Virus record (IMG/VR): IMGVR_UViG_3300028654_000014
Coordinates: 18,222-82,221 of that record
Length of the DNA: 64,000 nt
Direction: 5' to 3' (one strand)
From: a virus
Under the pieces are notes generated by a model. It ran no database searches. It saw nothing but the letters and a program-made list of their open reading frames with translations, and had not been told where the DNA came from. The translations under genes and the position numbers were made by a program. This document shows positions 2 to 20,825 of this stretch, piece after piece. Numbering within the stretch: position 1 is the stretch's first letter; each line of letters opens with the position of its first letter.

Positions 2-103
2 ATGTATATTGAAAAGGAAGAATCATATTGGCATGTATGTGGTAATAATATAGATAATCATAAAGAAAATGGGAAAATAATTGATATATTAACTTATGAA
101 TGA
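2..103 (+). CDS. micro-ORF of the ILEYK family (ends ILTYE), possibly 5'-truncated by the window edge
   Basis: Manual translation MYIEKEESYWHVCGNNIDNHKENGKIIDILTYE*; its end overlaps the polymerase ATG at 96. Confidence 0.55.
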   Translation: MYIEKEESYWHVCGNNIDNHKENGKIIDILTYE

Positions 104-1583
104 AATATTATATGGTAAACAAGAATTACAAAAAATAGTATCAATAGAACCTTCAAATAGTTCTGTTGAAATTTTCATTCAAGATAATCAAGGAAATGTT
201 AAATCAGAATTTGTTGAAAACCGTTCATGGATTTTAAGCCATTTTCCTCTAAAAGACTTTAAAAAACTCCAAGGTAATCTTTATTATCAATATGGTAAAC
301 AATTTAGAGAAAGAAACGAATTTCAAAAAGCTCGAAGCTATTTAAAAAACTCAGACATATTTTCAATTTATGACCCAAAAGAATCTTTCATGGTTCTAAA
401 GGGTTATACTTATTTTAAAGGATTAAAACACCAAGATGTTACAATTCTTTCATTTGACATTGAAACTACAACAAAAGATTTAAATGATCAATCTAAACTT
501 CTACTAATATCCAATACATTTAGAAAAAACGGCATAATTACTAAAAAGCTATTCTCCTATGATGATTATAATGATGAAGGAGAAATGATTGAAGAATGGT
601 GCAAATGGGTTAGAAAAATGGACCCAAGCATTATAACAGGTCATTATATTTTAGTATTTGATTTGGATTATATTCAATTCATAGCTAATAAATATAATGT
701 TGCTTTAAAATTAGGCCGAGATGGTTCTAATATGAAAGTTAACAATTATGAATCACAATTTAGAAAAGATGGTTCACAATCTTATTCATATTACAAACAT
801 TACATTTATGGCCGAGAAATTATTGATGGATACTTTTTAGCTTTAAAATATGATATTGGTAGAAAATATGATAATTATAAGTTAAAGAATATAATCAAAC
901 AAGAAGGATTAGAAAAACAAGGAAGAGTATTTTATGATGCTTCAAAAATCAGAGAGAATTATAAGAATCCTACCGAATGGGCTAAAATAAAAGAATATTG
1001 TATAGATGATTCTGATGATTCATTAGCAATATTTGATTTAATGAGTCCAGCATTATTTTATTCGGCGCAAATGATTCCCAAACCCTTTCAATTAATATCA
1101 GAATGCGCAACAGGTTCACAAATTAATTCAATTATGATGAGAAGTTATTTACAAAATGGTCATAGTTTACCAAGAGCTTCTGATCCTTTTCCTTTTAAAG
1201 GTGCAATATCAATAGGAAATTTTGGAATCTATAGAAATGTATTTAAAGTAGACGTTTCAAGTCTATATCCTTCAATAATGATCCAATATGAAGTTTACGA
1301 TAAAGATAAAGATCCTAATGGAAATTTCTTATATTTGGTAAAAAATCTAACGGAACAAAGACTTATAAATAAAAAATTAGCAAAAGAAACTGGAGATAAT
1401 TATTATAAAGGATTAGAACAGAGCCAGAAAATTTTAGTGAATTCTGCTTACGGATTTTTAGCTGCGGCAGGTTTGATATTTAATTCTCCTATTAAAGCTG
1501 ATTTTATTACAGAAACTGGAAGAGATATATTAAAAAAATCTATTTTATGGGCAACAGGAAAAGAATATGACGAAAACAGTTGA
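96..1583 (+). CDS. family-B DNA polymerase, N-terminal part (3'-5' exonuclease plus palm motifs A and B)
   Basis: ExoI FDIET, ExoIII YCIDD, motif A DVSSLYPS, motif B KILVNSAYG; motif C is absent. Confidence 0.93.
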   Translation: MNEILYGKQELQKIVSIEPSNSSVEIFIQDNQGNVKSEFVENRSWILSHFPLKDFKKLQGNLYYQYGKQFRERNEFQKARSYLKNSDIFSIYDPKESFMVLKGYTYFKGLKHQDVTILSFDIETTTKDLNDQSKLLLISNTFRKNGIITKKLFSYDDYNDEGEMIEEWCKWVRKMDPSIITGHYILVFDLDYIQFIANKYNVALKLGRDGSNMKVNNYESQFRKDGSQSYSYYKHYIYGREIIDGYFLALKYDIGRKYDNYKLKNIIKQEGLEKQGRVFYDASKIRENYKNPTEWAKIKEYCIDDSDDSLAIFDLMSPALFYSAQMIPKPFQLISECATGSQINSIMMRSYLQNGHSLPRASDPFPFKGAISIGNFGIYRNVFKVDVSSLYPSIMIQYEVYDKDKDPNGNFLYLVKNLTEQRLINKKLAKETGDNYYKGLEQSQKILVNSAYGFLAAAGLIFNSPIKADFITETGRDILKKSILWATGKEYDENS

Positions 1584-2109
1584 TTTAATTGGTAAAAGAT
1601 TTGGAAGATGGTTAGTTTTAGAAATTTCAAACATGGGAAAAAATCCTAGAGTAAAAGTAATATGTGATTGTGGTACAGAAAAAATTATATTAAGTAAAAC
1701 TTTAGTAGCTAAAAAAGCTAAAAGTACATCATGTGGATGTTATCAAAGAGAAAGAGTAAAAGAATGTTTAGGAAAACCAAATGATGTATCAGCTTTAAAT
1801 CAATATTATTCAATTTATAAAACTTCAGCAAAACAAAGAAATCATAATTTTAATCTTACTAAATATGAATTCAAACAATTTATTTTTGAAAAATGTTATT
1901 ATTGTGAAAAAAATCCAGAACCTAGACTTATACATTCTAGAGGATTACTTTTAAATGTAAATGGAATAGATAGAGTTGATAATTCTAAAGGTTATTCTAT
2001 TGAAAATTGTGTAACTTGTTGTAAAGATTGTAATAATAAAAAATCAGATATAACTAAAAATATTATAATAAAAGCTTATAATTTTCTAATGGGGGATAAT
2101 AATGCATAA
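1567..2109 (+). CDS. free-standing HNH homing endonuclease interrupting the polymerase
   Basis: N-terminal DLIGKRFGRWLV..CDCG..SCGC module; CYYC and GIDRVDNSKGYSIENCVTCCKDCN HNH/Zn motif. Confidence 0.88.
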   Translation: MTKTVDLIGKRFGRWLVLEISNMGKNPRVKVICDCGTEKIILSKTLVAKKAKSTSCGCYQRERVKECLGKPNDVSALNQYYSIYKTSAKQRNHNFNLTKYEFKQFIFEKCYYCEKNPEPRLIHSRGLLLNVNGIDRVDNSKGYSIENCVTCCKDCNNKKSDITKNIIIKAYNFLMGDNNA

Positions 2110-2770
2110 TTTTAAGCTTGTAAACGCTGATACAGACAGTATTTCCTTTTCCAAGGGTGATGAGTCATTTATTGAAAAAAGTGAGCGTATAAGCCTTTTA
2201 AACGAGATTAATGACCTATTTCCTGAGAAGATCAAGTTCGAAGATGATGGATTCTATAAAACGATTATATGCCTGATGGCAAAGAATTATGTAATGGAAA
2301 AGGAAGATGGTACAGTAATTTATAAAGGTTCTGCTTTAAAAGATGCTAAAAAGGAACCAGCCCTTTATCAATTTATGAAAGATATAATAGGTTCAATTTT
2401 AAACAATAAAAACAACTATTTAGAGATTTATAATCAATATGTTAAAGAAATTAAGGATGTGAAGGATATAAAACGCTGGGCATCAAAAAAGACCATTACC
2501 AAAGCTGTTTTAAAAGCTGAAAGAACCAATGAAAAGAATATACTTGCAGCAATTTCTGAAATCGAGTATAATGAAGGTGATAAAATTTCATTGTATTATG
2601 ATGAGGAAGATGTTTTGAAATTAGCTGATAATTTTGATGGAAAATATTCAAAGACAAGACTTCTGCAAAAATTGTACAAAACAAGTGAAACTTTTGAATC
2701 GATTATTCCAAAGGAAACTTTTATGAACTATTCTTTGAAGAGAAATCAAAAGATATTGGAAGTTTTATGA
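2102..2770 (+). CDS. family-B DNA polymerase, C-terminal part (motif C and thumb)
   Basis: NADTDS catalytic motif C followed by AKNY and YKG motifs; own RBS GGGGA upstream. Confidence 0.9.
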   Translation: MHNFKLVNADTDSISFSKGDESFIEKSERISLLNEINDLFPEKIKFEDDGFYKTIICLMAKNYVMEKEDGTVIYKGSALKDAKKEPALYQFMKDIIGSILNNKNNYLEIYNQYVKEIKDVKDIKRWASKKTITKAVLKAERTNEKNILAAISEIEYNEGDKISLYYDEEDVLKLADNFDGKYSKTRLLQKLYKTSETFESIIPKETFMNYSLKRNQKILEVL

Positions 2771-3390
2771 TAAAAAAGAAACACACATTATACTATATGG
2801 TAGAATCATTCTTATATAATAGTGATTTTTTTGTAAATTATGATGATGGTGGATTTTTCTTACCCATTTCTGAAGATGATGATCTTATTAAAATTGATCT
2901 AGATGAAAATGATGTAAAAATATTGGAATATAAATGAAAAAGAAGAAATGGACTTTAATTTATGATAATAGACCTTCGGAATTATTAGTAGCTGTTGGAA
3001 TTAAACCTTCTGCTGATAGTTTATTTATTTCATATAGTTATAATGAAACAATATTTTTTGATGATGGATTATTAAAAATGAAACTTGGTAAATTAAAATC
3101 TGATGTTAAAATATTGGAATATAAATGATGGTATTATTTTATTATCCAAGATTATGGTTTGGAGATTTTCCAGTAGTTAATTATTGGCCAAAAGATTTAT
3201 ATTTAAAAACTGAAATATTAGCAGGTGAATTTATTATTTGTGAGTATGAATGATTTTATATAGTTGGTATTCAAAATCTTTTAATAAATGGTTCATACAA
3301 GATCCAATGATGAAATTATATTTCTATAAATATATAATTGAAAAAGAAACAGATTGGATAGATAGAAAAATAATATTGGAATATGAATGA
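2767..3390 (+). CDS. array of four coupled ILEYK-family micro-ORFs (2767-2937, 2934-3128, 3125-3253, 3250-3390)
   Basis: Ends ILEYK, ILEYK, ICEYE, ILEYE; every junction is an ATGA overlap. Confidence 0.75.
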
Positions 3391-4316
3391 TTAAAGAAAT
3401 AGTTAATATTTTAATAGCAGAGGGAGGCATGGGAGATTTAATTTGTTCATTAGTATCAGTAAATTACAATATAACTCATTTCCCAGACATTCAATTTCTT
3501 GTATGGGTTCCAAATTATTTATTAGATTTTGCAAAACATGTATTACCAAGAGGAACTTCTATTAGAAATTTTACAGAAGCTCAAGATAAATATAATCCAA
3601 ATTTACCAGGAGTTTCAACAAAATGGTCATCATTCCATACTCCAATGAGAACTCATCCTGTAGATTATTCATTTCATATGTTAAGCGATAAACATATTTA
3701 TAATATGAATGAAAAGAACTATTTACAAATAAATCCTGAAAAGATTAATATAAAGAGATTTTCATTGCCAGAAAAATATGTAGTAATTTGTTCAGCAGCG
3801 GCAGAAAAAGTTAAAGAAATGCCCATAAGTACAATGAATGATTTAATTGAATATATTATTAATAAAGAATATACACCAGTATTTTTAGGTAAAACTCTTG
3901 TAGAAACAGGAGTTAAAGGAATAGATATTAAAGCTAATCCTTTAAATATTGATTATAGTAAAGGGATTAATTTATTAGATAAAACAAGTTTATTAGAAGC
4001 GGCAAAAATAATGAGTGAAGCAAAATGTGTAATAGGAATGGATGGAGGATTAATTCATTTAGCAGGATGTACAGATGTTACAATAATTGCAGCTTATACT
4101 TTAGCCAGCCCCGAACATTTAGCTCCAATAAGAAATGGATCACAATCTTATAAATTCTTTCCAATAGAACCAGATCTAAACATTCCAAATAGATATTATC
4201 AAACCAATAATAATTTTAATTATAATGTTGATTATAGAACATTTCCAGGATGGGAAAAAGTTGTAGAAAATATTACAAGTGATAAATTTGTAAAAGTATT
4301 GGAAGAGATTTTATGA
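3387..4316 (+). CDS. GT9-like (ADP-heptose/LPS heptosyltransferase-like) glycosyltransferase
   Basis: GGMGDL near N-terminus; INLLDKTSLLEAAKIM...IGMDGGLIHLAG motif typical of GT9. Confidence 0.82.
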   Translation: MIKEIVNILIAEGGMGDLICSLVSVNYNITHFPDIQFLVWVPNYLLDFAKHVLPRGTSIRNFTEAQDKYNPNLPGVSTKWSSFHTPMRTHPVDYSFHMLSDKHIYNMNEKNYLQINPEKINIKRFSLPEKYVVICSAAAEKVKEMPISTMNDLIEYIINKEYTPVFLGKTLVETGVKGIDIKANPLNIDYSKGINLLDKTSLLEAAKIMSEAKCVIGMDGGLIHLAGCTDVTIIAAYTLASPEHLAPIRNGSQSYKFFPIEPDLNIPNRYYQTNNNFNYNVDYRTFPGWEKVVENITSDKFVKVLEEIL

Positions 4317-4769
4317 CCTTTTTATATTATATAAATGATGAATTATCTGAAAATCTAACTTCTAATGAGAATTTTTTTATTAATGATATAATTTATAAAG
4401 ATAATAAGATTATTAAAATATTGGAATACACATGAATTATTTATATATTGTTAAAGTTGATAATAAAAGAAATTCATTAAAAGATGCAATTTTTCAATAT
4501 TTTACTAAAGAACAATATAAATTTTGTAAATTTTATCCTGAAGATACTTTCATATTGGAATATGAATGATATTTTATTGGATTACAATTGTAATATTAAT
4601 TTTAATAGGAATAAGTGCAATAATACTTATAATAGATAATTTTGTAATTAATAGAAAAACTTATCTTGTATGGAATCATAAAAAGATGTCTTTAAGATAT
4701 ACACCTCCAGTAGAATGTGGCAAATATCAAATAAAAAGAGAAGAACAAATAATAATGAGTTACAAATGA
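4313..4769 (+). CDS. array of three coupled micro-ORFs (4313-4435, 4432-4569, 4566-4769)
   Basis: Ends ILEYT, ILEYE, IMSYK; ATGA overlaps; the third has an N-terminal TM helix. Confidence 0.72.
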
Positions 4770-5395
4770 AAACAGCAATATTTACAACTACTTATCTAGT
4801 CCCCCAAGAAAGATTTGATAAAACTGTCAAATTTCTTGATTATTATTCAAGAAAAACTAATTATGATATATACGTTTTAGATAATAATTCTCCATTAGAA
4901 AAAGCAATTGAATTACAACTATTATTTCCTCAAATCAAAATTATAAGATATGATGAACATTTTGATAGACCAAGCCATTTAGATTATAAATATCTTTGGA
5001 GAGCAGTTTTTGATCTTCAAAACTATTTTAATGAATATGAAAAGATAATTTATATGGATAATGACTTTTATATACTTTCTGATAAAATGTTCAATTATAT
5101 CAATGATTTAAAAGATTCATGGACCACTTTTTGGTGTAAAATGCATCAATTTCCAGAAACAGGATGCCATATAATTCTTAAAAATGATCCTAACTATACT
5201 AACTTTATTAAAGATTTAACTTTACAAAATTTTATAAACCTGTATAATAATAGTTGTATGGAAAATACTTTGCCCGTTTCAAAAATTGAGAAATCATTCA
5301 ATGGTGATAGATTTGGGGAATTAAAAGATCCTCCAAAATTAGATGGATTGGATTTTTGGGCGCAAGCGAAATTGGAGGATAGGATTGAACTTTAA
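4766..5395 (+). CDS. GT-A fold glycosyltransferase-like protein
   Basis: VLDNNS and YMDNDF (DxD) motifs; start at the ATGA overlap at 4766 preferred over 4715. Confidence 0.6.
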   Translation: MKTAIFTTTYLVPQERFDKTVKFLDYYSRKTNYDIYVLDNNSPLEKAIELQLLFPQIKIIRYDEHFDRPSHLDYKYLWRAVFDLQNYFNEYEKIIYMDNDFYILSDKMFNYINDLKDSWTTFWCKMHQFPETGCHIILKNDPNYTNFIKDLTLQNFINLYNNSCMENTLPVSKIEKSFNGDRFGELKDPPKLDGLDFWAQAKLEDRIEL

Positions 5396-5517
5396 TATTC
5401 TAGCTTATAGATTAAATCAACCTATTCATGGTAATATTCATGATCCTTTTTATTGGATTCCAACAGTTTATTCAGGATATGTAGAAATATTTAGATTAGT
5501 TGAATTTAGAGAATATA

Positions 5518-5789
5518 ATGACTAAATTATGGTATAATACAAGAAAAGTATGGAAACATATGCCATTCTCTTCAACAAGGAAAAATTATACTATACATTT
5601 CACAGGTAAGAAAAATATTATATCTGATAGAGAAATAATATATGAAGATGATATTTTAATAATGGAATATAAATGATATTAGTTTATTGGAGCGAAATAT
5701 ATGCAGATCCATTTAAATTATATCCAATAGAATATTATTGTAATATACCAGTTAGTAAAGTTCATATAAAAGTAATGGAGTATAAATGA
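5518..5789 (+). CDS. two coupled micro-ORFs (5518-5676, 5673-5789)
   Basis: Ends IMEYK and VMEYK; ATGA overlaps. Confidence 0.72.
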
Positions 5790-6400
5790 TTTGTATCATA
5801 CCTTGTGCCGGATTTGGAAAACGAATGGGAATGAAAAAGAACCAATCCAAAGAAATGCTCCCAGATACTGATTTTAAAAATGATCATATAATTGATTATA
5901 GTATAAATATTTGTAGAACATTAGAAATTGAACCAATAGTAGTTACAAGAAAAGAGAAGAAAGATTTAATTAATTATTTAAAAGAAAAGAAAGTTAAATA
6001 CATCATTTTTAATCCAAATGAACATAATGAATGGTATGATTCAGTTTTAGCTTCACAAGCTCATTGGGATGAAGATAATTTATTAATTCTACCAGATACA
6101 AGATTCTTACCAATATTTCCAACTATTTCTGATATTAAAAAAGGATTGGAATTGGGAAATGAAGCAGTATTTGCAGTTCACAAAGTTAATGACCCACAAA
6201 ATTGGGGAATAATTAAAGATTATTCTTTATTTGAAAAACCTGAAAATATGGAAGGTCCTCAAAGAGCTTGGGGATTAATAGGTTTTAAAAAATCTTATGG
6301 ATTTAATTTATTTAGTCGAATGAAGATGAAAAATCAAGAATTAGAACATGCAGGATTTGTATATTTAAATAGCTTTTTGGATATTACAAGAGGTAAATAA
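5786..6400 (+). CDS. sugar-phosphate nucleotidyltransferase (NTP_transferase family)
   Basis: IIPCAGFGKRM...SKEMLP N-terminal signature; LLILPD; VNDPQNWG. Confidence 0.8.
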   Translation: MICIIPCAGFGKRMGMKKNQSKEMLPDTDFKNDHIIDYSINICRTLEIEPIVVTRKEKKDLINYLKEKKVKYIIFNPNEHNEWYDSVLASQAHWDEDNLLILPDTRFLPIFPTISDIKKGLELGNEAVFAVHKVNDPQNWGIIKDYSLFEKPENMEGPQRAWGLIGFKKSYGFNLFSRMKMKNQELEHAGFVYLNSFLDITRGK

Positions 6401-7371
6401 TGGGAGTTTTTAAAGTAAAAAAGATTACCAATATTAATGATGTAAAAGTCAATGATGAACTTCCTGAATCAGATTTCGCATCAATGACCAGTGAAGGAAA
6501 TTTCGTACAACTTGAATATATTGATGATGAACATACAAAAGAACCTTATAAAGTCAAGCCAGGAATTTGGGCAGTACAAAAAGTAGGTATGAGTTTAAAA
6601 TTAGAAGCTACAAGCTTTGTAAGTGATAAAATATTAGATTCATTTGTAAGTACAAAGAATATTACTGATAAAATTGATTGCTTTTTCAATAAAATTCCAG
6701 TTTATAAGGAATTGGGATTTGAAGTGGCGAAAAGAGCAGCTTTATTATATGGTCCCGCAGGATGTGGAAAATCGACCAGCCTTGCATTAGTAGCAAACAA
6801 ATATACAGCAGATAATAAAACAGCAGTCATAATATGGCATACAGATAAATTTGAGTCATACCAAATTAAGGATTTTATCAAATCTTTTGAATATGATGGA
6901 GTTGAAAAGCTCATTTTGATTATAGAGGATGTTGGAGGAGCAGAAATTGAAGGTGCTCGAATGAAATCTGACAGTTCCCTACTTTCATTATTAGATAATC
7001 AAGAAAAAACCTTTAAGATTCCAGTATTTATACTCGCAACAACAAATTATCCTGAAAATTTCATGGGCAATCTTACAAACCGTCCTAATCGATTTGACGA
7101 TAAAATAGAAGTATCCTATCCAGAAGCAAAACAAAGAGAAGAATTATTATCATTCTTTTTAAAAGAAAGTCCTTCACAAGAAGCAAAAGATCTGATATTA
7201 TCTAATAAGACAAAGGAATTTTCAGCGGCTCATATAAGAGAGATAGTGATAAGGTCAAAAATATATGATAAATCAATTGAAGCTGTCATTACAGAAATGC
7301 ACAAAGAGATTGAGAAGTATAAGAAAGCCTTTGCAGAAGAACGAAAAATGGGATTCGAAATTGATGATTAA
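6400..7371 (+). CDS. AAA+ ATPase
   Basis: Walker A LLYGPAGCGKS, Walker B IIEDV, sensor ATTN, RPNRFD arginine finger. Confidence 0.88.
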   Translation: MGVFKVKKITNINDVKVNDELPESDFASMTSEGNFVQLEYIDDEHTKEPYKVKPGIWAVQKVGMSLKLEATSFVSDKILDSFVSTKNITDKIDCFFNKIPVYKELGFEVAKRAALLYGPAGCGKSTSLALVANKYTADNKTAVIIWHTDKFESYQIKDFIKSFEYDGVEKLILIIEDVGGAEIEGARMKSDSSLLSLLDNQEKTFKIPVFILATTNYPENFMGNLTNRPNRFDDKIEVSYPEAKQREELLSFFLKESPSQEAKDLILSNKTKEFSAAHIREIVIRSKIYDKSIEAVITEMHKEIEKYKKAFAEERKMGFEIDD

Positions 7372-7468: not shown

Positions 7469-7489
7469 CTAAACAAAAGGGAGAAATAG

Positions 7490-8554: not shown

Positions 8555-8598
8555 TGATTTTCATAGTGTATTTAAATACGAGAGGGAGATTTTAAGAT

Positions 8599-9900
8599 AT
8601 GACTAAAACAGAGGAACTTTTACAGTCATGTATTTATAAGATAGTAAGGGATAATGCTTTTATTGGTGGTTTGTTACAAGAATTAACTTTTAAATTTAGT
8701 AATGAAGTACCAACAGCTGCGATTGGTTTTGATAAAAAGACCCAAAAGTATGAATTATACTTCAATCTTGACTTTTTTCAGAAAATGGAGAAGGAACAAA
8801 GAATTGCAGTATTAATGCATGAAATCCTTCATTTTCTTCATAAACATCTATTTCGATGGATGCAAATGAAAGTTGATGAAAAGGACCGATTTTTATGGAA
8901 CATTGCAGCAGACATGGCCATAAACCAATACATTGAAAACCTCCCAAAAGGCTCTATAAGCATAGATAATTACAAAGATGCTAAAGGACAGCCTTTTCCA
9001 AAATTCCAGCCCATGGAAGCCTATTACGATCTAATACAACAGAATAGAGAAGGAGATAAGACCAAAGGACAGGATTTAAAAGATCCTAATGGTGAACCTT
9101 CAAAAGATAAGAACGGAAATTCTATTGTTGATCCTAATGGAAAGCCTTATGATTCCAAAGGAACGGGCAATGAGGGATCAAATAAGGAAGAATTGGACAA
9201 ATATACAGCAATGGATGAGCATAAATGGGAAGATCTTTCAGATGAAGAAAAAGAAAGAATGGCTAGAGAAGCTGAAAAGCTTATTAAACGAACCATTGAA
9301 AAAACAGCTTATAGTCATTCAAATATTCCAGGATATGTTGAAGATTTCTTAAAAGATTTAAGTGCATATTTAAGGAAATTGAATTATAAAGCTATTTTAA
9401 GAAATGCAATAAAGAAAACAGTAATGAGTCAAGATAGAGAAAATTCATGGAAGAAACCTAATAAAAGATTTGGAGAAGTAGCCCCTGGAACTTCTTTAAG
9501 TAGAACTCCAAGAATTAATATGTATGTTGATACTTCAGGATCAATTTCTTATCAAGAACTTACAGAATTTTTAAGTATTATTGATGGATTTTTAAAAGCC
9601 GGAAATAAAGATTGTAGATTAGTTTTATGGCATACAAATCCTTATTATAATAAGAAATATAAACTTAATAGTAAATTAGATTCAAAAGTAGTTCAAGCAG
9701 GAGGAACAGATCCTCAACCTACTTTAGAATTGATTCAAAAAACTAGCCCCGATCTTTCTATTATTCTAACAGATGGATTTTATGATAAATCTAATATTAA
9801 ATTACATAGTGATGTAATATGGATTATTAGTAAAACTGGAAATAAAGATCATCCAAATTCTCATATTGGGAAAACGATTCTTTTAGAAGGAATTAAGTGA
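8599..9900 (+). CDS. metallopeptidase-like plus vWA domain protein (DUF2201 type)
   Basis: HEILH zinc motif, WNIAADMAIN, MIDAS DTSGS, GGT, ILTDG. Confidence 0.85.
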   Translation: MTKTEELLQSCIYKIVRDNAFIGGLLQELTFKFSNEVPTAAIGFDKKTQKYELYFNLDFFQKMEKEQRIAVLMHEILHFLHKHLFRWMQMKVDEKDRFLWNIAADMAINQYIENLPKGSISIDNYKDAKGQPFPKFQPMEAYYDLIQQNREGDKTKGQDLKDPNGEPSKDKNGNSIVDPNGKPYDSKGTGNEGSNKEELDKYTAMDEHKWEDLSDEEKERMAREAEKLIKRTIEKTAYSHSNIPGYVEDFLKDLSAYLRKLNYKAILRNAIKKTVMSQDRENSWKKPNKRFGEVAPGTSLSRTPRINMYVDTSGSISYQELTEFLSIIDGFLKAGNKDCRLVLWHTNPYYNKKYKLNSKLDSKVVQAGGTDPQPTLELIQKTSPDLSIILTDGFYDKSNIKLHSDVIWIISKTGNKDHPNSHIGKTILLEGIK

Positions 9901-10087
9901 AAAAAAGTTTAATATGGATTCCTAAATTAGGAATTAGAAGATGTATAAGAGGTGATATGTTTAAATACGAAACTCTTATATTGGATTATGAATGAAAAAT
10001 TTAATTTGGTTGAATAATTTAAAATGTTTTATTTGGATTAAAAGAATAGGTGGTACACATGAAACTTTTATATTGGAATATAAATGA
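9897..10087 (+). CDS. two paralogous coupled micro-ORFs (9897-9995, 9992-10087)
   Basis: MKKSLIWIPKL..ETLILDYE and MKNLIWLNNL..ETFILEYK. Confidence 0.72.
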
Positions 10088-10410
10088 TAGTAATTTTAAA
10101 AGATGAAGTAGTAGGAAAATCTTTACGTATTCCCATAATGATTGGAATTTCGGTATCAGTAAAATTTACATTAACTTCAATAGCTAACTCTCAAATTATT
10201 GATTGTGAATTTTTAAGAGGAAAAGAATATAAAGCAAAATTAAAAAAAGATCCATTAATAGGAGATGAATTTTATTTTATAAAACCAGAAAATTCTTCTA
10301 AAATATTTAAATTTGATAAATATGTTATTGATAAACACTTTTATATTAAAACAGAAAAACAAATACATCAAGAGAAATTTGATAAGAAAATGGATAAGAT
10401 ACTGAAATGA
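10084..10410 (+). CDS. hypothetical protein with C-terminal HxExFxxKMDK helix
   Basis: Coupled ORF ending HQEKFDKKMDKILK. Confidence 0.6.
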   Translation: MIVILKDEVVGKSLRIPIMIGISVSVKFTLTSIANSQIIDCEFLRGKEYKAKLKKDPLIGDEFYFIKPENSSKIFKFDKYVIDKHFYIKTEKQIHQEKFDKKMDKILK

Positions 10411-10604
10411 TTCAATTATATTATATAGATAATACATGGTATGAAAATACTTACGAATTCATTGATTTTTCTAATGGTAGGAATTTATTGAACAAAAGTA
10501 AAAAAGAGATGTCCAGATTTGTTTATAAAGATTATAACGATACTGTTAGAGTTAATAGTGATTATATGTATAAATTAAAGCTTATTTTTGAAATTAGTGC
10601 TTGA
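10407..10604 (+). CDS. hypothetical small protein
   Basis: ATGA-coupled ORF with aromatic N-terminus like the micro-ORFs. Confidence 0.55.
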   Translation: MIQLYYIDNTWYENTYEFIDFSNGRNLLNKSKKEMSRFVYKDYNDTVRVNSDYMYKLKLIFEISA

Positions 10605-10958: not shown

Positions 10959-10961
10959 AAT

Positions 10962-11117
10962 ATGAATAGATTATTTATTGTAAATGAACCATTAACTTAT
11001 AAATGGCATTTAGAAAATAATCATGGAGTTCATTATTTCAGTAATGATAAAGTATTAGTTAAGTATGCTGTAGTTATTGATTATAGTAAAGGAATATATA
11101 TTTGTATTTATGATTGA
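10962..11117 (+). CDS. micro-ORF, divergent ILEYK-family member (ends ICIYD)
   Basis: Manual translation, 51 aa; overlaps next ATG at 11110. Confidence 0.5.
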   Translation: MNRLFIVNEPLTYKWHLENNHGVHYFSNDKVLVKYAVVIDYSKGIYICIYD

Positions 11118-12639: not shown

Positions 12640-12640
12640 A

Positions 12641-13148
12641 ATGATATTAACTTATATAACTTCTGTATATTATATAGGTAATATTCATCATATTGAATTT
12701 TGGTACGGTCCAGTAAATAATTATTTATCCAATAATTATGGTGATGAAGAAAAGATAATATTGTATTATGAATAAAATGTACTATATTTTTGATACAGGA
12801 ATGTATCATATTGGAATTCAAACTGCATATAGTATAAGGTATTTTGATTATTCTCATAATGATTGGACATCTATTATTAATAGAAAGATACATTACAAAG
12901 ATATTAGATATGTATTAAATTATGAATAAATTAATATTAGTACTTTCATTTTTATTATTACTTGTAACTATTTTGTATAGAAGATGAATAAACTTTTATT
13001 AGATGGTACTGGTATTTTTGGTAAAACTAAATATTGGATTATGAAAGATGATAGATTATATGAATCAATAAGTATGCGTTTATTGGAAAACACAGTTAAT
13101 GATTTAAATATTAAAAATGATAAAGTTATATTAGAATATGAGGATTAA
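12641..13148 (+). CDS. array of four coupled micro-ORFs (12641-12775, 12768-12929, 12922-12987, 12984-13148)
   Basis: Ends ILYYE, VLNYE, ILYRR (21-aa hydrophobic peptide), ILEYED; each overlaps the next start. Confidence 0.68.
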
Positions 13149-14045: not shown

Positions 14046-14271
14046 GTATTTAATACCATTTTTATTACTAATTTCAATAGGTTGTATAAATAAACATGAA
14101 CAATCTAGACCTAAATATCATATTGGACAAATTGTAGGTAATGGATATTGTAAAGGAATGATAGCATCTGTTATATATTTAATGGATTACTATGAATATT
14201 ATATATTAGATGCAGAATGTGGAAATAGAATATATAATCATGTTATTTTAAGAGAAGATGAGATAAAATGA
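14035..14271 (+). CDS. putative lipoprotein
   Basis: Hydrophobic N-terminus ending ISIGC (lipobox-like). Confidence 0.5.
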   Translation: MKAKYLIPFLLLISIGCINKHEQSRPKYHIGQIVGNGYCKGMIASVIYLMDYYEYYILDAECGNRIYNHVILREDEIK

Positions 14272-14413
14272 AGCTTAAATTATATATTTTAGTTGACAAA
14301 GATAAAAGAATTTGTTATACTAGTGATAATAGAAAACAAGTTCAATATTTTAAAAAATCTATTGAAGCAAATAATAAAAACCTTAAAATTGTAAAACTAA
14401 CAGGAGAAATAAA

Positions 14414-14605
14414 ATGACCAAATACGCCGTATCAGAAGAGTCCCTCAATTCTATTCTAAACTATCTAGCATCAAGACCTTTTGCTGAAGTTTATAAAATT
14501 GTACCACTTCTTCAAGTTCCAAATGTAGAACTATTGGCACAAGAAGCTCAAGCAGAAGCATCTGAAGTATCTGAAGTATTGGATAGTCAAGAATCAGCAT
14601 CATAA
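14414..14605 (+). CDS. hypothetical protein
   Basis: AGGAG RBS; ILNYLASRPFAEV motif. Confidence 0.6.
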   Translation: MTKYAVSEESLNSILNYLASRPFAEVYKIVPLLQVPNVELLAQEAQAEASEVSEVLDSQESAS

Positions 14606-14621
14606 TGATCGGAGGGGATAA

Positions 14622-14957
14622 ATGTCGGGAATTAAGCATGATTCTGAAAAAGAACCATTAGATCTTTTACCACCAGAAGCTTTATTTGAGATAGGAAGAG
14701 TTTTAGCTGCCGGAAAGAAAAAATATGGCACAGCAAATTGGGCCAAGGGAATTACAATTTCCAGACTTCTGGCAGCTTCTTTAAGACATATCTTTCAATT
14801 TTTAAAAGGTGAAGATTATGATAAAGAAACTAAAACACTTCATATTGCAAATGCTGCTTGTAATTTAATGTTTGCGATTTGGATGATGAAAAATAGACCT
14901 GACCTAGATGATCGTTGGATCAAAGGAGTTAAAAATGGCAAGAAAAAAGGCAAATAA
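14622..14957 (+). CDS. dATP/dGTP diphosphohydrolase (DUF5664-like)
   Basis: GIKHDSEK..LDLLPPEAL...GKKKYG..NWAKG...LRH...LHIANAACN pattern. Confidence 0.8.
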   Translation: MSGIKHDSEKEPLDLLPPEALFEIGRVLAAGKKKYGTANWAKGITISRLLAASLRHIFQFLKGEDYDKETKTLHIANAACNLMFAIWMMKNRPDLDDRWIKGVKNGKKKGK

Positions 14958-15280
14958 ATATGGATGGAGTGATAATCCTTTAATTCTAATTAAACAGTTA
15001 GAAAAAGAAATGATTCCTGATATTAAAGCTGGATTAAAATTAAATCCTAAAACAATCAAGAATCTACAAAAAATAGATGAGATCTTTAAAAAAGGATTAA
15101 AAAATGGTAAGAAAAAAAGATAATACATTAAAACTTATGAAAAAAGTTGGTAAAGATTTAGATATAGTATTAAAAAATAAACATAAATTAAATCCTAGTA
15201 CATTAAAGAATTTTAAAAAGATTGATTCTTTATTTGAAGATTTATTTAAAGATATTGATTCACTTGGAAAAAAGAAATGA
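14935..15280 (+). CDS. two tandem paralogous small basic proteins (14935-15123, 15104-15280)
   Basis: Share M[AV]RKK..DNxL and KLNPxTxKNxxKIDxxF. Confidence 0.6.
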
Positions 15281-15468
15281 TAACAAACGAGTATCTAAAA
15301 GGATACATAAACGCTCTAGATAATATTAAATCTATTGTAAATACTTACAAAATTGATTCAAATAATAATCATTCACTAGAAGCTTTTAATGATGTTTTAA
15401 ATTATATTGAACAAGTAAGAAATAATTACAAACAATTAGTAAAGGAATTAAACGAGAAGAATGATTAA
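15277..15468 (+). CDS. hypothetical protein
   Basis: ATGA-coupled ORF. Confidence 0.5.
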   Translation: MITNEYLKGYINALDNIKSIVNTYKIDSNNNHSLEAFNDVLNYIEQVRNNYKQLVKELNEKND

Positions 15469-15573
15469 TTTGAATGAAGCTCTTATGTATTTTTTTAAAC
15501 TTTCAATATTATTTTTCATAAGTTCAATTGTTTTATCAGTAATATTTCACAAATTAACAAAGAGGATTAAACG

Positions 15574-16011
15574 ATGCAACTAAAAGTTAAGAAAACAGAT
15601 TCAACTGCTTACCCTTTGGAATATAAAACAGAAGGATCAGCAGCTTTTGATTTAACAAGCATTGAAGAAGTTACTATTACATCAGGAGAAACAAAAGCAG
15701 TCAGAACAGGGTGGTCTTTCGAAGTTCCTCCAGGTTTTGAACTAGAAATTAGACCAAGATCAGGACTTTCTTTAAGTTCTAATATTAGAATCAGTAATTC
15801 TCCTGGTACTATTGATTCTGATTTTAGAGGAGAGGTTAAAATTATTGTAGATCTTCTAATGAAAAGATTTCCTGAAACATATACAATAGTCAAAGGACAA
15901 AGAATTGCCCAAGCTCTTTTAAAGAAGGTTGAACAAGCAGAAATTGTAGAGATAGAAGAACTTTCTGAAACTGAAAGAGGAACTGGTGGATTTGGAAGTA
16001 CAGGAAAATGA
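15574..16011 (+). CDS. dut: trimeric dUTPase
   Basis: SAAFDL, RPRSGLS, PGTIDSDFRGE, QRIAQ, RGTGGFGSTG. Confidence 0.95.
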   Translation: MQLKVKKTDSTAYPLEYKTEGSAAFDLTSIEEVTITSGETKAVRTGWSFEVPPGFELEIRPRSGLSLSSNIRISNSPGTIDSDFRGEVKIIVDLLMKRFPETYTIVKGQRIAQALLKKVEQAEIVEIEELSETERGTGGFGSTGK

Positions 16012-16095
16012 TCCAATCTTTTGGTCAAGTCTTATTTCTATTCCTAGCATTTTTAATGATTATATTCATTCCCGATTCATTTAAAAGGACAACAG

Positions 16096-16380
16096 ATGGC
16101 AAAGACACGTCATGCAAAACCAGACGAGTTCCAAAAGGAACAAATAAGAAATCTAAGAAAACAATTAAAACAAAGAGATCAAAAAATAAGACAGTTAGAA
16201 AAACTTCTAGGTTATAATCAAAATAGAGATGAATCTAAAAAGGATTCAGTAATAGAAGAATTAAATGTATGTGAGCATTGTGGAAAAGGGTTTGTAGTTG
16301 AAACTGTTTTTGAAGGAATTAAAAGGAAGTTTATAAGCTGTACAGTGTGCGATTATAAATCTAGGGCAATCAAAATATGA
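16096..16380 (+). CDS. coiled-coil plus Zn-ribbon protein
   Basis: CEHCGKG...CTVC. Confidence 0.6.
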   Translation: MAKTRHAKPDEFQKEQIRNLRKQLKQRDQKIRQLEKLLGYNQNRDESKKDSVIEELNVCEHCGKGFVVETVFEGIKRKFISCTVCDYKSRAIKI

Positions 16381-16673
16381 ACGATTTAAAGAATCTTAAA
16401 ACTCTAGAATATCTATTAAAAGATAAAAACTACTTTGGATATAAATTTTATACTGTTTTTAGACATATTGAATATGATAGTTATGAAATAACTTTTCTTA
16501 ATGATGAAAATAAATATTTTAGAATTCAATTATGTCATGGATTAATTTTAGGTATGGAATACAATAATTTAATAGGATATATTGATAATATGGTCCATAG
16601 TTCCTCAGATTTTAAAAAACTCGCTCATAATCAACAATTTATGAACAAATTTGATAAGATGTTACATGAGTAA
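16377..16673 (+). CDS. hypothetical protein
   Basis: Coupled ORF ending HNQQFMNKFDKML. Confidence 0.55.
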   Translation: MNDLKNLKTLEYLLKDKNYFGYKFYTVFRHIEYDSYEITFLNDENKYFRIQLCHGLILGMEYNNLIGYIDNMVHSSSDFKKLAHNQQFMNKFDKMLHE

Positions 16674-16836
16674 TATATCATATAGATTTAATTCAGTAAT
16701 AGGATTATTAGAAGCTGGTATTATAACACATAAAGAAGCTATAGAACTTTTAGATTTTAGTAATGTATATTATATTAATAATAAATTAATGTGTTTTAGA
16801 AAATTTGATATAATAGAAGTATTAAGATATGAGTAA
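16666..16836 (+). CDS. micro-ORF of the ILEYK family (ends VLRYE)
   Basis: Overlaps both neighbours. Confidence 0.6.
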   Translation: MSNISYRFNSVIGLLEAGIITHKEAIELLDFSNVYYINNKLMCFRKFDIIEVLRYE

Positions 16837-17233
16837 AAAGAAAAAAGATTATAGTTCAATAGAAAAGGATAATGAAGCATTTGAAAAGCATAAATTCAAT
16901 TTTGTTAAGAATGCTTTAAGAATCGCAACTTACAAGTGGCCATATTTTTCTAAAGCTCTTGCGCGACAAAGACTTGAAAGAGGATTATATCAATGTGAAT
17001 CTTGTAAAGGAGCTTTCGGTCCAAAACAAATTAATCGGGATCATATTGAACCTGTAGTAGCAGTAACAGGATGGTCAGGATGGACAGATTATATTAATAG
17101 ATTATTCGTTAAGAGTGATGGAATTCAAATATTATGTATATCATGCCACGAAAACAAGAGTTTAGTTGAAAATCAAATGAGGAAAAAATATAATCAACCT
17201 ATTATTAAAATTCGAAAAAAGAAGAATAAATGA
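16829..17233 (+). CDS. HNH endonuclease
   Basis: YQCESC, RDHIEPV, QILCISCH. Confidence 0.8.
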   Translation: MSKKKKDYSSIEKDNEAFEKHKFNFVKNALRIATYKWPYFSKALARQRLERGLYQCESCKGAFGPKQINRDHIEPVVAVTGWSGWTDYINRLFVKSDGIQILCISCHENKSLVENQMRKKYNQPIIKIRKKKNK

Positions 17234-17874
17234 AAACTGGTGTGTATAAAATAACAAATATTATAAATAATAAAATTTATGTAGGAAGTTCTTGGAAATG
17301 TATTATAAAAAGATGGAGATGTCATAAAAGTAATTTAAAAAAGAATAAACATACTAATAAACATCTTCAAAGATCATGGAATAAACATGGAGAAGAAAAT
17401 TTTAAATTTGAAGTTTTAGAATATTGTGAGCCTTTAAAATGTATGGAAATAGAACAATATTATATAGATACATTAAATCCCGAATTTAATATATGTAAAA
17501 GAGTTGAAGGTAGGATAGGTTGTAAATTATCTAAAGAACAAATTGAGAGATTAAGGGTAATAAATACAGGTAGACCTGCGTGGAATAAAGGAAAACCATT
17601 TCCAAAAGAAACACGAAAAAGAATGTCTGAATCTAGAAAATTAGGATTAAAAAATGGAACTGTTAAATCTTGGAATAAAGGAAGATCATTCCCATCAAAA
17701 GGACCAGTTTATTGTTCAAATGGTAAAATTTATAAATCTGTAAGAGATGCAGCAAAAGATTTAAAAGTTAAACCAAATACAATAGTTAAAGCTTGTACTG
17801 ATAAAAAGCAAATAAGAAAGGTTAAAAAATTTATAGTATCTTATGATAATATTAATAATGCGAGTAAAGAATAA
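17230..17874 (+). CDS. GIY-YIG homing endonuclease with NUMOD3-like repeats
   Basis: GVYKITN..KIYVGSS, RW..H, EQYYID; repeated WNKG. Confidence 0.9.
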   Translation: MKTGVYKITNIINNKIYVGSSWKCIIKRWRCHKSNLKKNKHTNKHLQRSWNKHGEENFKFEVLEYCEPLKCMEIEQYYIDTLNPEFNICKRVEGRIGCKLSKEQIERLRVINTGRPAWNKGKPFPKETRKRMSESRKLGLKNGTVKSWNKGRSFPSKGPVYCSNGKIYKSVRDAAKDLKVKPNTIVKACTDKKQIRKVKKFIVSYDNINNASKE

Positions 17875-17907
17875 TCAAAAACCAATTAAGATGAAGAAAA
17901 GAAAGAA

Positions 17908-18601
17908 ATGAAAGATCCTTTAAAATTATTTAAAAGACTTGGAATAAAGTATTATGATATAATGGATTTTTTCAAAGAACCTTTCACATATAAACCATAT
18001 TATAATTCAAATATATTAAAATATTATAAAAAGAAAATATTGGTATATAAATGAAAGGTGCTTTCATAGAAGCTGCTAAATATTTAATGGGATTTTATAA
18101 TTTTTATCCATGGGAAATTAAAAGATTTAGTAAATTAAATTGGCTAATATATGGTGATATAAAAATATTGAGGTATAAATAATGGCTGCAACATTTATGG
18201 GAATTTCAGATATGAGTAAAATTTTTAAAGAATTATATGCAGATTATTTTTCACCATGGAGATATGATGGAAAGAAATTAACTTATAATGAAGGTCATCT
18301 TTGGACTTCACCCAAAGTTGCTCCTCCTAAAAAAGATTTGATAGTATTGGAATATAAATAATGGGAAACTCAAATTATTATGTATATGATTCACCACACT
18401 GGGTTTCAGAAAATAATATACTCACTTATATAAGCTTTTATATTCCTTATGAAACTAAACAAACGGAAATATTAAGATATGAATGAATATCAACAAGAAA
18501 CTGATTGGATCTATGAAAAATGTATATGGTTAAGTAATGGATTTTATTGGTATAATTCAAAATATGAAATAATTCAAATATTTCAATTGACAAATGAATA
18601 A
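17908..18601 (+). CDS. array of five coupled micro-ORFs (17908-18054, 18051-18182, 18182-18361, 18361-18486, 18479-18601)
   Basis: First four end ILVYK, ILRYK, VLEYK, ILRYE; ATGA/TAATG overlaps. Confidence 0.72.
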
Positions 18602-18615
18602 CTATTTGATATAAT
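18587..18615 (+). promoter_or_regulatory. consensus sigma70 promoter
   Basis: TTGACA-17 bp-TATAAT, with extended TG. Confidence 0.85.
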
Positions 18616-18624
18616 GGGTAATAT

Positions 18625-18906
18625 ATGATTCAAAAACTACAAGACTTATTAAAGACAATTTTAACTAAATTGAACTTTCTAGACTATCAACAACAGTTAT
18701 CTATAAGCAATATAACAGTTGCTGTATTTGTATTTATAGCCGCGATAAGAATGGCTTTTGGAGGTTCGGATTTAAATCTTGGATTCTTCATATGGAAAAT
18801 ACAAGTTATAGATATAGGTGGAACATTACCAGTTTTCTACTCGCTTTTAAATTATGCACATAAAAGACATATTAACAATCAAAATAATGGAGATAATAGT
18901 AAATGA
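18625..18906 (+). CDS. small membrane protein (holin-like)
   Basis: Hydrophobic segments; directly after the promoter. Confidence 0.5.
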   Translation: MIQKLQDLLKTILTKLNFLDYQQQLSISNITVAVFVFIAAIRMAFGGSDLNLGFFIWKIQVIDIGGTLPVFYSLLNYAHKRHINNQNNGDNSK

Positions 18907-19814
18907 ATAAACTTAAAGACCTTCTAGTTAAATTAAAGAGTAACTTATCTATTCCTTTAAAAGTTGGAATAGTAGGATTCGCTCTTTTGAGCGGATTTGT
19001 AATAATTAAACATTTAAAACACGAAACAAATCTCGGAGATTCAAGTGTAATGATTGTAAATCATGAAGTAACTCATGGTGGTACAGGAATTATTCTACGA
19101 TCAACAAGCGGTGAATCTAGTATTCTTACAAATGATCACGTTTGTCGAGCAATTAATACAGGTGGAATAGTAATTTCTCCAACTGGAACATATCAAATTA
19201 CAAAGATGCTTGAATCAGAATTAAGTGATTTATGTTTAATATCAGTAGCAGCAGATTTGGGAGTTAATACAAAAATTGCTCAAAAAGCTCCAGAATTTTA
19301 TGAAGAAGCACAAGTTTCTGGACATCCAGCTTTGATGCCCAATGTTATTTCTACAGGTCATTTCTCAGGAAGATCAATTATTCAAGTTATGACAGGAGTT
19401 AGAAAGTGTACTGATGAAGAATTATCTGGTCAACTTGGAATTATTTGTGCATTTTTTGGTGGAATTCCAGTAGTTAAGAACTTTGAATCTATTCTTGTAA
19501 CAGCAACAATTATGCCAGGAAGTAGTGGATCTGGAGTTTATAATAAAGATAAAGAACTAAGTGGTGTAGTATTTGCAGGGAAAAGCGATTTTGGTTATGC
19601 ATGGACAGTTCCTTACGAACAAGTTGTAAACTTTCTATTTAAAGAACATAAACATCTTAAAACTAAAGTTGTTTCTCAAGAAATTAATATTCTTAAAGAA
19701 GTCGGTCAAGAAAATAAAACAAAAGAAGTATTACAAAAATGTGCTCAAGAAACGAATGAAGAGATTTTAAACTTTTGTGAGATACTTAAACAAGATATGA
19801 CATGGGTAAAATAA
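18903..19814 (+). CDS. membrane-anchored trypsin-like serine protease
   Basis: N-terminal TM helix; catalytic triad motifs TNDHVC, SDLC, PGSSGSG. Confidence 0.85.
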   Translation: MNKLKDLLVKLKSNLSIPLKVGIVGFALLSGFVIIKHLKHETNLGDSSVMIVNHEVTHGGTGIILRSTSGESSILTNDHVCRAINTGGIVISPTGTYQITKMLESELSDLCLISVAADLGVNTKIAQKAPEFYEEAQVSGHPALMPNVISTGHFSGRSIIQVMTGVRKCTDEELSGQLGIICAFFGGIPVVKNFESILVTATIMPGSSGSGVYNKDKELSGVVFAGKSDFGYAWTVPYEQVVNFLFKEHKHLKTKVVSQEINILKEVGQENKTKEVLQKCAQETNEEILNFCEILKQDMTWVK

Positions 19815-20080
19815 TGTTAGATTTATGGAATAAGATTAAAACATGGGCTTTAGGAATTGTTTCTGTAATAGGAGCAATTTTAGCTGCTCTTTTTTGGTAC
19901 GAAAAAACAAAGAATGCAGATTTAAAAGCTAAAGATGATAATATTGAAACAAAGAGTAAAGTAGCTCAAATTAATCAACAAATTGATGATTTAGAAAAAG
20001 AAACAAAGGATAAAGAAAATGAACCACAAACTAAAGAAAGCTTGCTTGATTTCGTTAATAATGTTAACAAGCCTAAATAG
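19814..20080 (+). CDS. TM plus coiled-coil protein (i-spanin-like)
   Basis: N-terminal TM helix then coiled coil; overlaps the next gene. Confidence 0.5.
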   Translation: MLDLWNKIKTWALGIVSVIGAILAALFWYEKTKNADLKAKDDNIETKSKVAQINQQIDDLEKETKDKENEPQTKESLLDFVNNVNKPK

Positions 20081-20381
20081 TTTTGCTCAACAAGAATCTG
20101 TATATTTAGATAAAGGAACTCCAGCTCCATTCTTTGGATACCTTTTACCAGAAGATACTGTAATTACATTAAGAAATAACACTCTCGAAAGAGATATGTA
20201 TAAAACTGAATCTACTTTAAAAGATCAGCAAATACAACTTCTATCTACTCAAAATGATAATCTTTCCAAGACATTAGAAAGTACATCAAGTTTAAATGCT
20301 TGGGAAAAGATTGGATTTTTTGTAGGTGGAGTTTTAATTACAGGGTTAGCGATTTCAGGTGCCCATGCAATCTACCATTAA
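20019..20381 (+). CDS. signal peptide, coiled coil and C-terminal TM protein (spanin-like)
   Basis: Signal peptide SFA|Q; PAPFFGYLL; C-terminal hydrophobic helix. Confidence 0.5.
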   Translation: MNHKLKKACLISLIMLTSLNSFAQQESVYLDKGTPAPFFGYLLPEDTVITLRNNTLERDMYKTESTLKDQQIQLLSTQNDNLSKTLESTSSLNAWEKIGFFVGGVLITGLAISGAHAIYH

Positions 20382-20825
20382 ATTAGTAATTGGTACTAAT
20401 CCTTTTGTTAGAAGTTATTGTTTTATAATAGAAGATGAATATAGTTTTAGAAATTTATTACCTTCTCGATTAGTTTTGGAATATGAATAACAAATTATAC
20501 TACGATAATCAAAAAAATGATCCAGATAAATTTGTAATATTCTTTCAAGAATCGAATTTAAAATATTATAATACTAGAGTTGACGATTGGGTTTATTCTG
20601 GAATTCATGTAATAAAAGATATAAATAAATTAGTTAGAATAATGGAATATGAACAAACTATATTATAATACAAATCCTGATTTTGGATGGTTTATTAAAT
20701 TTAACAATACAGATGGTTTACATTTTAATAAATTAGAAATCTTTCAAGAAGTTGAAAATGGACAAAAATCTACAGATATACTGATAATGGAATATGAAGA
20801 AGATAATAACAGAACTAACGGATGA
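20365..20825 (+). CDS. three coupled micro-ORFs (20365-20490, 20483-20668, 20649-20825)
   Basis: Motifs VLEYE*, IMEYE-QTIL*, IMEYE-EDNNRTNG*. Confidence 0.68.

Follow-up and report, generated by a model that had tools for sequence, protein, structure and literature searches.

Our analysis concerns a set of very small open reading frames (micro-ORFs) with a common C-terminal ending in an uncultured soil phage that has a genome of ~82 kb. The stretch of DNA analyzed (here, the window) comprises 64,000 nucleotides (nt), namely, bases 18222 to 82221 of the 82,221-bp IMG/VR viral record IMGVR_UViG_3300028654_000014, and positions below are those of the window unless the genome or a related contig is named. 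The record is low in G+C. Its plus-strand arm (24 to 30% G+C), which runs from genome position 1 to about 40.3 kb (i.e., to about 22 kb of the window), contains the replication and early genes, including those encoding a family-B DNA polymerase, a GT9 glycosyltransferase, AAA+ and MoxR ATPases, a von Willebrand factor A (vWA)/metallopeptidase protein, a RecA-like protein, and a trypsin-like protease. The minus strand has the terminase genes and the virion module. Close cultured relatives were not found: a megablast search of the arm against phage records gave no matches, the best protein matches are weak (30% for the terminase, with a Silvanigrella phage, and 31% for the polymerase, with Salinibacter phages), and single-protein locus searches with the GT9 and vWA proteins were without matches. 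Positions 1 to 20000 are covered, almost free of differences, by contigs from four rhizosphere metagenome runs.

Micro-ORFs with a common ending

About 45 micro-ORFs, of 31 to 82 amino acids, end in [IV][LMC]xY[KED]-stop when the last position of the motif is relaxed. Using a strict expression for the ending ([IVLM][LMICV].Y[KEDTC]$) and scoring ORFs of at least 28 amino acids, we found it in 36 of the 167 plus-strand ORFs of genome positions 1 to 40400, compared with none of the 121 remaining plus-strand ORFs, 1 of 287 minus-strand ORFs, and 0.3% in shuffled sequences. The ending is Y-x-stop in ~39 of 43 members, and the other four have 1 to 9 residues past the motif. The 39 plus-strand members have a total length of 6.3 kb, which is 7.7% of the genome; ~16 members of the family are located outside the window, in the 18 kb that precede it. 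At the nucleotide level, the 12-mer ATATTGGAATAT (at most one mismatch) occurs at 14 sites, all on the plus strand within positions 1 to 21 kb, and nowhere else in the window.

Two other traits accompany the ending. An aromatic pair near the N terminus is present in 20 of the 36 strict-motif members and in 7 of 81 other genes (p = 1 × 10^-7), and the stop codon overlaps the next start in 34 of the 36 (by -4 in 14 cases, -8 in 12, -14 in 3, and -1 in 2), with the remaining two being followed by a gap. An earlier note on this DNA had described a frequent hydrophobic-aromatic start, overlap with the next start in nearly all members, and absence from the virion module; the counts bear out the first two, and no member was found in the virion module (22 to 60 kb). 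All 25 plus-strand ORFs that the note had listed exist and carry the motif, as do its four minus-strand members at 61.5 to 62.6 kb. Its estimate of about 30 members was right as to the existence of the set and too low in number. The ORF at 2-103, although real, is only the 3' part of an ORF that starts 79 nt before the window, and in three listed ORFs (7364-7468, 20483-20668, and 20649-20825), the motif is present but sits 3 to 9 residues ahead of the stop. The members and related features of the window are as follows.

2..103, plus strand: 3' part of a 60-amino-acid member (MIELKYY...DILTYE-stop), the stop of which overlaps the DNA polymerase start
2767..3390, plus strand: array of four members (2767-2937, 2934-3128, 3125-3253, and 3250-3390), all ATGA-joined, between the C-terminal half of the polymerase and the GT9 glycosyltransferase gene, which abut in the related locus L088
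2920..2937, plus strand: example site of the junction repeat ATATTGGAATATAAATGA (Ile-Leu-Glu-Tyr-Lys-stop, GGA core, next ATG)
4313..4769, plus strand: array of three members (4313-4435, 4432-4569, and 4566-4769) between the GT9 gene and the next core gene; the N-terminal half of the third is hydrophobic and membrane-like
5518..5789, plus strand: two members (5518-5676 and 5673-5789) preceding a core gene of 204 amino acids
7364..7468, plus strand: 34-amino-acid member (MINGYYC...VLEYIND-stop) with 3 residues between motif and stop; after it come a gap and a GGGAG site of the ordinary kind
9897..10087, plus strand: the two shortest members (32 and 31 amino acids), after the vWA/metallopeptidase gene
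10407..10604, plus strand: 65-amino-acid ORF with the N-terminal motif (MIQLYYIDN) and without the C-terminal motif, a possible relative of the family
10962..11117, plus strand: 51-amino-acid member ending in ICIYD-stop
12641..13148, plus strand: three members (12641-12775, 12768-12929, and 12984-13148) ahead of the RecA-like gene; the second keeps the motif despite a 54-nt gap after it
16666..16836, plus strand: 56-amino-acid member ending in VLRYE-stop
17908..18486, plus strand: array of four members (17908-18054, 18051-18182, 18182-18361, and 18361-18486) directly 3' of a GIY-YIG endonuclease gene
20365..20825, plus strand: three members (20365-20490, 20483-20668, and 20649-20825), the last two reading past the motif
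61551..61918, minus strand: three members (61551-61688, IICEYV-stop; 61675-61821, LVCEYI-stop; 61808-61918, FICEYE-stop) upstream of the terminase genes
62311..62603, minus strand: one member (62490-62603, LIILEYV-stop) and a 60-amino-acid ORF with the N-terminal motif only (62311-62493, VIFYYF), upstream of the terminase

The junction repeat ATATTGGAATATAAATGA is also found at 3111, 3373, 4552, and 10070 and, with one mismatch, at nine more sites. In the two members at 20483-20668 and 20649-20825, a CAA or GAA codon occupies the position of the stop codon of other members, which suggests stop loss.

Several other features of the arm may be mentioned. The polymerase gene (96-2770) is split into ORFs of 495 and 222 amino acids by an ORF of 180 amino acids, homologs of which adjoin micro-ORF arrays in the related contig L029; in L088, the polymerase is intact (711 amino acids). 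The 226-amino-acid core gene at 4715-5395 probably starts at the in-frame ATG at 4766 (MKTAIF...) rather than at 4715; this start makes an ATGA overlap with the member at 4566-4769, and the L088 homolog starts with LKTLLF. A perfect sigma-70 consensus promoter (TTGACA, 17 nt, TATAAT, with TG) is located on the plus strand at 18587-18615, just past the array at 17908-18601 and ahead of the gene at 18625-18906. A second common C-terminal peptide, K-[MF]-[DG]-x-x-hydrophobic..., possibly exists on five otherwise different proteins (RKMGFEIDD, DKKMDKILK, NKFDKMLHE, NNKMDELLK, and RKMDEVIDD), encoded at window positions 6400-7371, 10084-10410, and 16377-16673 and at genome positions 10588-11073 and 17341-17760 (L009). 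Three of these five genes are directly 5' of ORFs with the N-terminal motif of the micro-ORFs, one such ORF being without the C-terminal motif.

Coding status, relationships, and turnover

To assess coding, codon usage was trained on long genes, and the six frames of each micro-ORF were compared with stop codons skipped. The annotated frame scored best for all 43 interiors. Compared with an estimate from base composition, the interiors are enriched in Asp, Glu, Trp, Tyr, and Phe (Asp, 7.2% versus ~3% expected). Two related contigs, L029 and L031 (the same contigs as L015 and L027), have a portal 85 to 89% identical and a terminase 72% identical to those of the phage. They are mostly identical to each other, with one diverged mosaic segment, in which three well-aligned orthologous micro-ORFs have ratios of nonsynonymous to synonymous polymorphism (pN/pS) of 0.15 to 0.35, and a 113-amino-acid gene between them has a similar value. 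This is direct evidence, from a small sample of sequences, for purifying selection in the annotated frame. Judged by their sequences, the micro-ORFs appear to be real genes.

The earlier note had called the middles of the proteins mostly unrelated, a description that is not supported as it stands: several pairs of members encoded far apart in the genome can be aligned from end to end (E values of 5 × 10^-9 to 1 × 10^-3 within the set), and adjacent members are more alike than nonadjacent ones in heads, tails, and middles (p = 0.005 to 0.008), the bodies being those of diverged paralogs and not of unrelated, tag-bearing clients. Neighbors have 20 to 22 identical bases at both ends and middles that are barely alignable, which suggests that local duplication was recent and the ends were homogenized or that the middles diverged fast. 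Because many pairs have no detectable similarity outside the termini, we extend common descent to all 45 only by inference; on this basis, the micro-ORFs would constitute one diverged paralogous family grown by local duplication.

An AlphaFold2 model of a 55-amino-acid member with 24 paralogs (predicted local distance difference test [pLDDT] score, 73) has strands at residues 2 to 11, 14 to 23, 26 to 30, and 49 to 54, namely, an N-terminal hairpin, a third strand, and, beyond a variable segment modeled with low confidence, the C-terminal strand. The conserved core is probably a small beta sheet formed by the N-terminal hairpin (M-x-x-hydrophobic-Y/W-Y/W) and the C-terminal strand (hydrophobic-I-L-x-Y). 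Fold searches with this model (Foldseek PDB, BFVD, and VIA-align wide) found nothing above chance (best E value, 0.2; Z score, 4.2). Of the repertoire diversified on a small beta scaffold that the note had proposed, the repertoire is real, and the scaffold is probable on the strength of the model.

Comparison with relatives shows that members come and go as whole units. L029 and L031 have seven or eight members ending in ILEYK upstream of the terminase gene, and L031 has exactly one member (33 codons, a 99-nt ORF) more than L029, the indel being flanked on both sides by TTGGAATAYAAATGA. A whole cassette has been gained or lost at a junction repeat. In a contig of metagenome run X2, position 17255 of the window is joined to 18163 through 7 nt (AAATATT) of a junction, a deletion (17256-18162) that takes away the GIY-YIG endonuclease gene and most of two members. 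As a separate observation, GIY-YIG-type endonuclease genes adjoin micro-ORF arrays at window positions 17230-17874 and at L031:4087-4755 and do not do so in L029. In the more distant loci L088 to L091 (polymerase 50 to 55% identical), the genes for the polymerase, GT9, the next protein, and the 204-amino-acid protein abut directly, and it is at these junctions that the phage has arrays of four, three, and two members, in agreement with the insertion at gene junctions that the note had postulated.

The family has a narrow distribution. Among 59 loci collected by portal similarity, it is present in L029 and L031 only. Searches with 38 members gave no match in PHROGs and no meaningful match in Pfam; a word-indexed profile search of 5.8 billion proteins returned one match, the phage's own protein; a full hidden Markov model search of 1.84 billion representative proteins returned 13 matches, all of them the phage's own; and no usable match was obtained in the ESM Atlas. 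When junction 18-mers were searched in viral, metagenome, and genome collections, the family appeared only in L015 and L027 among the matches listed, and the rest were single chance matches. Thus, in the collections searched, the family is restricted to one lineage, and distant relatives are without it; as the note had supposed, it is not a described family in any of the libraries searched.

Two sets of ORFs in relatives resemble the family in part. L036 (portal 78% identical) contains eight plus-strand ORFs of 64 to 88 amino acids (L036:3129-7078) that end in [IL]F[VI]WE-x-stop, with synonymous variation and with TGG-GAR codons that give a GGGA(R) ribosome-binding core. They have no N-terminal motif, and a profile-profile comparison with the family of the phage gave no match. 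Two relatives without the family have a single ORF of 65 amino acids (L030:3653-3850 and L032:6577-6774) that starts with M-(M/K)-IEIYY(Y/F)ND and has FIKVWK 11 residues before its end. This ORF may be an ancestral relative of the family, with the 65-amino-acid ORF at 10407-10604 as its counterpart in the phage.

Constraint on the ending and its possible explanations

The ending is under constraint at both the peptide and the nucleotide level. Of the 89 genes with a stop codon that overlaps or abuts the following start, 34 of 64 small ones have the motif, compared with none of 25 long ones (Fisher p = 4 × 10^-7), a result in favor of the note, which would have been refuted by an equal frequency in long overlapped genes. 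Likewise, 25 other ATGA junctions of the phage have unrelated terminal residues, none with the motif, and ordinary GGAG-type sites. The ending is retained in the two members that precede a gap and at those ends of arrays that face core genes, and the N-terminal motif is retained in the first members of arrays, behind nonfamily genes or gaps; both motifs therefore belong to the ORF and not merely to the junction between members. At the codon level, the two hydrophobic positions draw on nonneighboring codons: position 1 alternates between Ile (ATA or ATT) and Val (GTA or GTT) and position 2 between Leu (TTG, TTA, or CTT), Met (ATG), and Cys (TGT or TGC), and the motif Tyr and Glu residues use their synonymous codons at ratios typical of the genome. 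The note had taken the synonymous variation as a sign of selection on the peptide. The codon use just described points to such selection, which is, however, only part of the picture, as two codons are strongly overused in the motif, TTG (15 of 28 motif Leu codons, or 54%, versus 9% genome-wide; p = 2 × 10^-9) and AGG (3 of 5 motif Arg codons versus 7% genome-wide). With TTG-GAA or AGG, a GGA/AGG core comes to lie 6 nt upstream of the next ATG, as is the case at about half of the junctions; the overuse of the two codons suggests that the bases of the motif are under selection as a ribosome-binding core for the following gene as well. Of 41 starts behind members, 22 have no Shine-Dalgarno-like element and 11 have GGA only, and folding of the junction RNA revealed no structure (z scores of -1.4 to +0.9), which fits a hand-over of ribosomes by coupling. 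Ordinary genes of the phage have strong GGAG-type ribosome-binding sites.

From these data, the reading in which the motif is a pure by-product of a ribosome-binding site and an overlapping stop and start, with the peptide unconstrained, can be judged. Part of the motif does arise in this way: the last residue is Lys or Glu because of the NNA-TGA overlap, TTG-GAA yields GGA, and at the -8 junctions, Tyr-Glu-stop (TATGAATAA) includes the ATG-AAT of the next ORF, so that many members begin with Met-Asn. Furthermore, three long genes ahead of arrays have ILE-like ends (KILEVL, KVLEEIL, and ILLEGIK), one of which, the GT9 end KVLEEIL, is nevertheless found in L088 as well, a relative without micro-ORFs. 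A by-product should not, on the other hand, be missing from the long overlapped genes and the other ATGA junctions or be kept where no start overlaps; Leu is also encoded by CTT and TTA, and four members ending in ILTY[ED] use ATA TTA ACT TAT, which provides no Shine-Dalgarno-like bases. The long-gene, codon, and gap tests contradict the by-product reading, which we consider very nearly untenable.

Other signals at the junctions were looked for and discarded. A TATAAAT sequence resembling a T4 late promoter is missing from junctions of the Glu type (TATGAATGA), and there is no enrichment in promoter-like sites. The near-palindrome ATATT-GG-AATAT would form a hairpin with too short a loop, and the folding of junction RNA shows none. 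An Rfam scan of positions 1 to 22 kb of the window detected no family.

The explanation that we favor, and hold to be probable with due reserve, is that the micro-ORFs encode a private family of small beta proteins that diversifies rapidly and in which the terminal codons are used three times, as a strand, as a coupling signal, and as a recombination seam; translation of the micro-ORFs is part of this explanation and shares its likelihood. The family would have reached ~45 copies by local duplication and by insertion and deletion of whole cassettes within translationally coupled operons, gain and loss being driven by recombination between junction repeats of ~15 to 20 nt, while the segment between the N-terminal hairpin and the C-terminal strand would vary in sequence and length. 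The final 15 bases would encode the last strand of the protein; they would provide a ribosome-binding core that is weak (AGG, or the GGA in TTG-GAA) together with a stop/start overlap (ATGA or TATGAATAA) that hands ribosomes on; and they would supply homology for cassette recombination, which would also keep the ends alike. In our proposal, it is this triple use of one set of 15 bases that makes the ending so uniform. From their size, position, and turnover only, the proteins can be conjectured to be variable small binders that act early in infection, in host takeover or counterdefense.

Several observations weigh against this explanation. The end blocks of 20 to 22 identical bases could mean that the ends, and not the bodies, are inherited, and many pairs of members are without detectable similarity beyond the termini. 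The fold model is of moderate confidence, and a 32-amino-acid member gave no usable model (pLDDT, 54). The estimate of selection comes from three or four short orthologous pairs in two near-identical contigs. Finally, in L036, a common ending on ORFs without the N-terminal motif and without profile similarity to the family fits a functional ending better than a common fold.

Two alternatives have to be weighed against the private beta family. The ending could be an address label, in which a free C terminus of the type hydrophobic-hydrophobic-x-aromatic-acid/Lys serves as a docking or sorting tag for one hypothetical phage or host partner, such as an AAA+ machine, a protease, or a clamp-like hub, that handles the small proteins as a group, with the bodies as cargo. 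No other part of the proteins is nearly as conserved as the ending, and Y-x-stop is nearly universal among them. The different but chemically similar ending of L036, on eight ORFs with bodies that have no similarity to the family, looks like a tag that coevolves with its reader, and candidate readers are found among the proteins of the phage (two AAA+ ATPases, one of them MoxR-like, the vWA/metallopeptidase protein, and the trypsin-like protease). But the motif is 1 to 9 residues short of the C terminus in four members, the reader is hypothetical, and the overuse of TTG and AGG together with the stop/start overlap already explains part of the uniformity. Moreover, a tag is expected on unrelated proteins, and here the bodies are related, with a common N-terminal motif and full-length pairwise similarity. 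We regard this alternative as unlikely and keep it in consideration mainly because of the L036 set and the extreme uniformity of the ending. No better are the chances that a true address label exists in lineage-specific versions (ILEYK here and IFVWED in L036), as one case of a wider, undescribed habit of phages.

In the other alternative, the cassettes are filler, selfish or neutral, and spread and persist owing to a junction repeat that is prone to recombination and leaves the coupling of translation in the operon intact; the peptides need only be harmless and open in frame. The indel at the junction repeat in L029 and L031, the microhomology deletion of run X2, neighbors with identical ends and scrambled middles, the absence of the family from all but the closest relatives, and the homing endonuclease genes beside several arrays are all compatible with such an origin. 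Filler is not expected, however, to have pN/pS values well below 1 in diverged orthologs, a protein-like codon usage and composition, or a hydrophobic/aromatic pattern conserved at both termini, nor to occupy ~8% of a size-limited genome, and we therefore consider it improbable.

If the private-family explanation is true, the phage has a compact means of assembling and renewing a micro-protein repertoire through a single 15-base seam, which would be a structural strand, a translation hand-over, and a recombination site at once and would allow genes to be added or removed without disturbing the operon. It offers a testable model for the build-up of ORFans between core phage genes and would explain how sets of small phage proteins can have a common terminal peptide, which bears on the competing idea of an address label. 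A family of ~45 members with no homolog in 1.84 billion proteins is also a candidate pool of host-interacting small binders, and length cutoffs in gene callers miss ~8% of such a genome.

Comparison with known systems

In translationally coupled genes of bacteria and phages, stop and start overlap as ATGA or TAATG, and the upstream gene contains the Shine-Dalgarno sequence. The micro-ORFs resemble them in their -4, -8, and -1 overlaps and, at about half of the junctions, in a Shine-Dalgarno-like GGA/AGG that is located within the terminal codons of the preceding ORF, at a distance of 6 nt from the ATG. They differ from ordinary coupling by the common pentapeptide, in contrast to the unrelated endings at the other 25 ATGA junctions of this phage. 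Common C-terminal peptides read by one partner include ssrA-type degrons, the clamp-binding tails of T4 gp43, gp33, and gp55, and the tips of single-stranded DNA-binding proteins. Like these, the family has a short, uniform, free C-terminal ending on many proteins of one genome. Unlike these tails, the ending matches none of their motifs, occurs on paralogs and not on unrelated enzymes, owes part of its uniformity to the nucleotide level, and has only a hypothetical reader.

Blocks of small early or host-takeover ORFs are known from large phages, for example, the host-takeover module of SPO1 and the terminal-repeat genes of Twort-like phages. As in those blocks, dozens of very small, codirectional genes in the early/replication arm have homologs only in close relatives. 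To our knowledge, blocks of the SPO1/Twort type are neither single paralogous families with conserved termini nor interleaved singly among core replication genes.

A further parallel is found in the hyperplastic regions of T4-type phages, which contain promoter-early stem-loop (PeSL) cassettes, that is, noncoding promoter-plus-terminator units flanking unrelated genes (Arbiol et al. 2010, PMC2839356). In both systems, short repeats separate small, mostly ORFan genes (nonessential in T4-type phages), and whole genes are gained, lost, or rearranged among close relatives through recombination at them, as represented here by the 99-nt indel of one ORF and the X2 deletion. In contrast to PeSLs, the repeat described here is coding and in frame, lies inside operons, carries the coupling signal, and separates members of one paralogous family. 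A sigma-70 promoter at each junction is not indicated, as 153 promoter-like sites were counted versus 139 ± 11 in shuffled sequences and none recurs at junctions, and the four terminator-like sites (4.5 expected) include none at a junction. Without the promoter and terminator that define PeSLs, and with a coding repeat, the arrays are best regarded as an analog, and not a member, of the PeSL system; PeSL-mediated modular shuffling in T4-type phages is the closest described mechanism, with gene-sized indels at short repeats as the trait in common.

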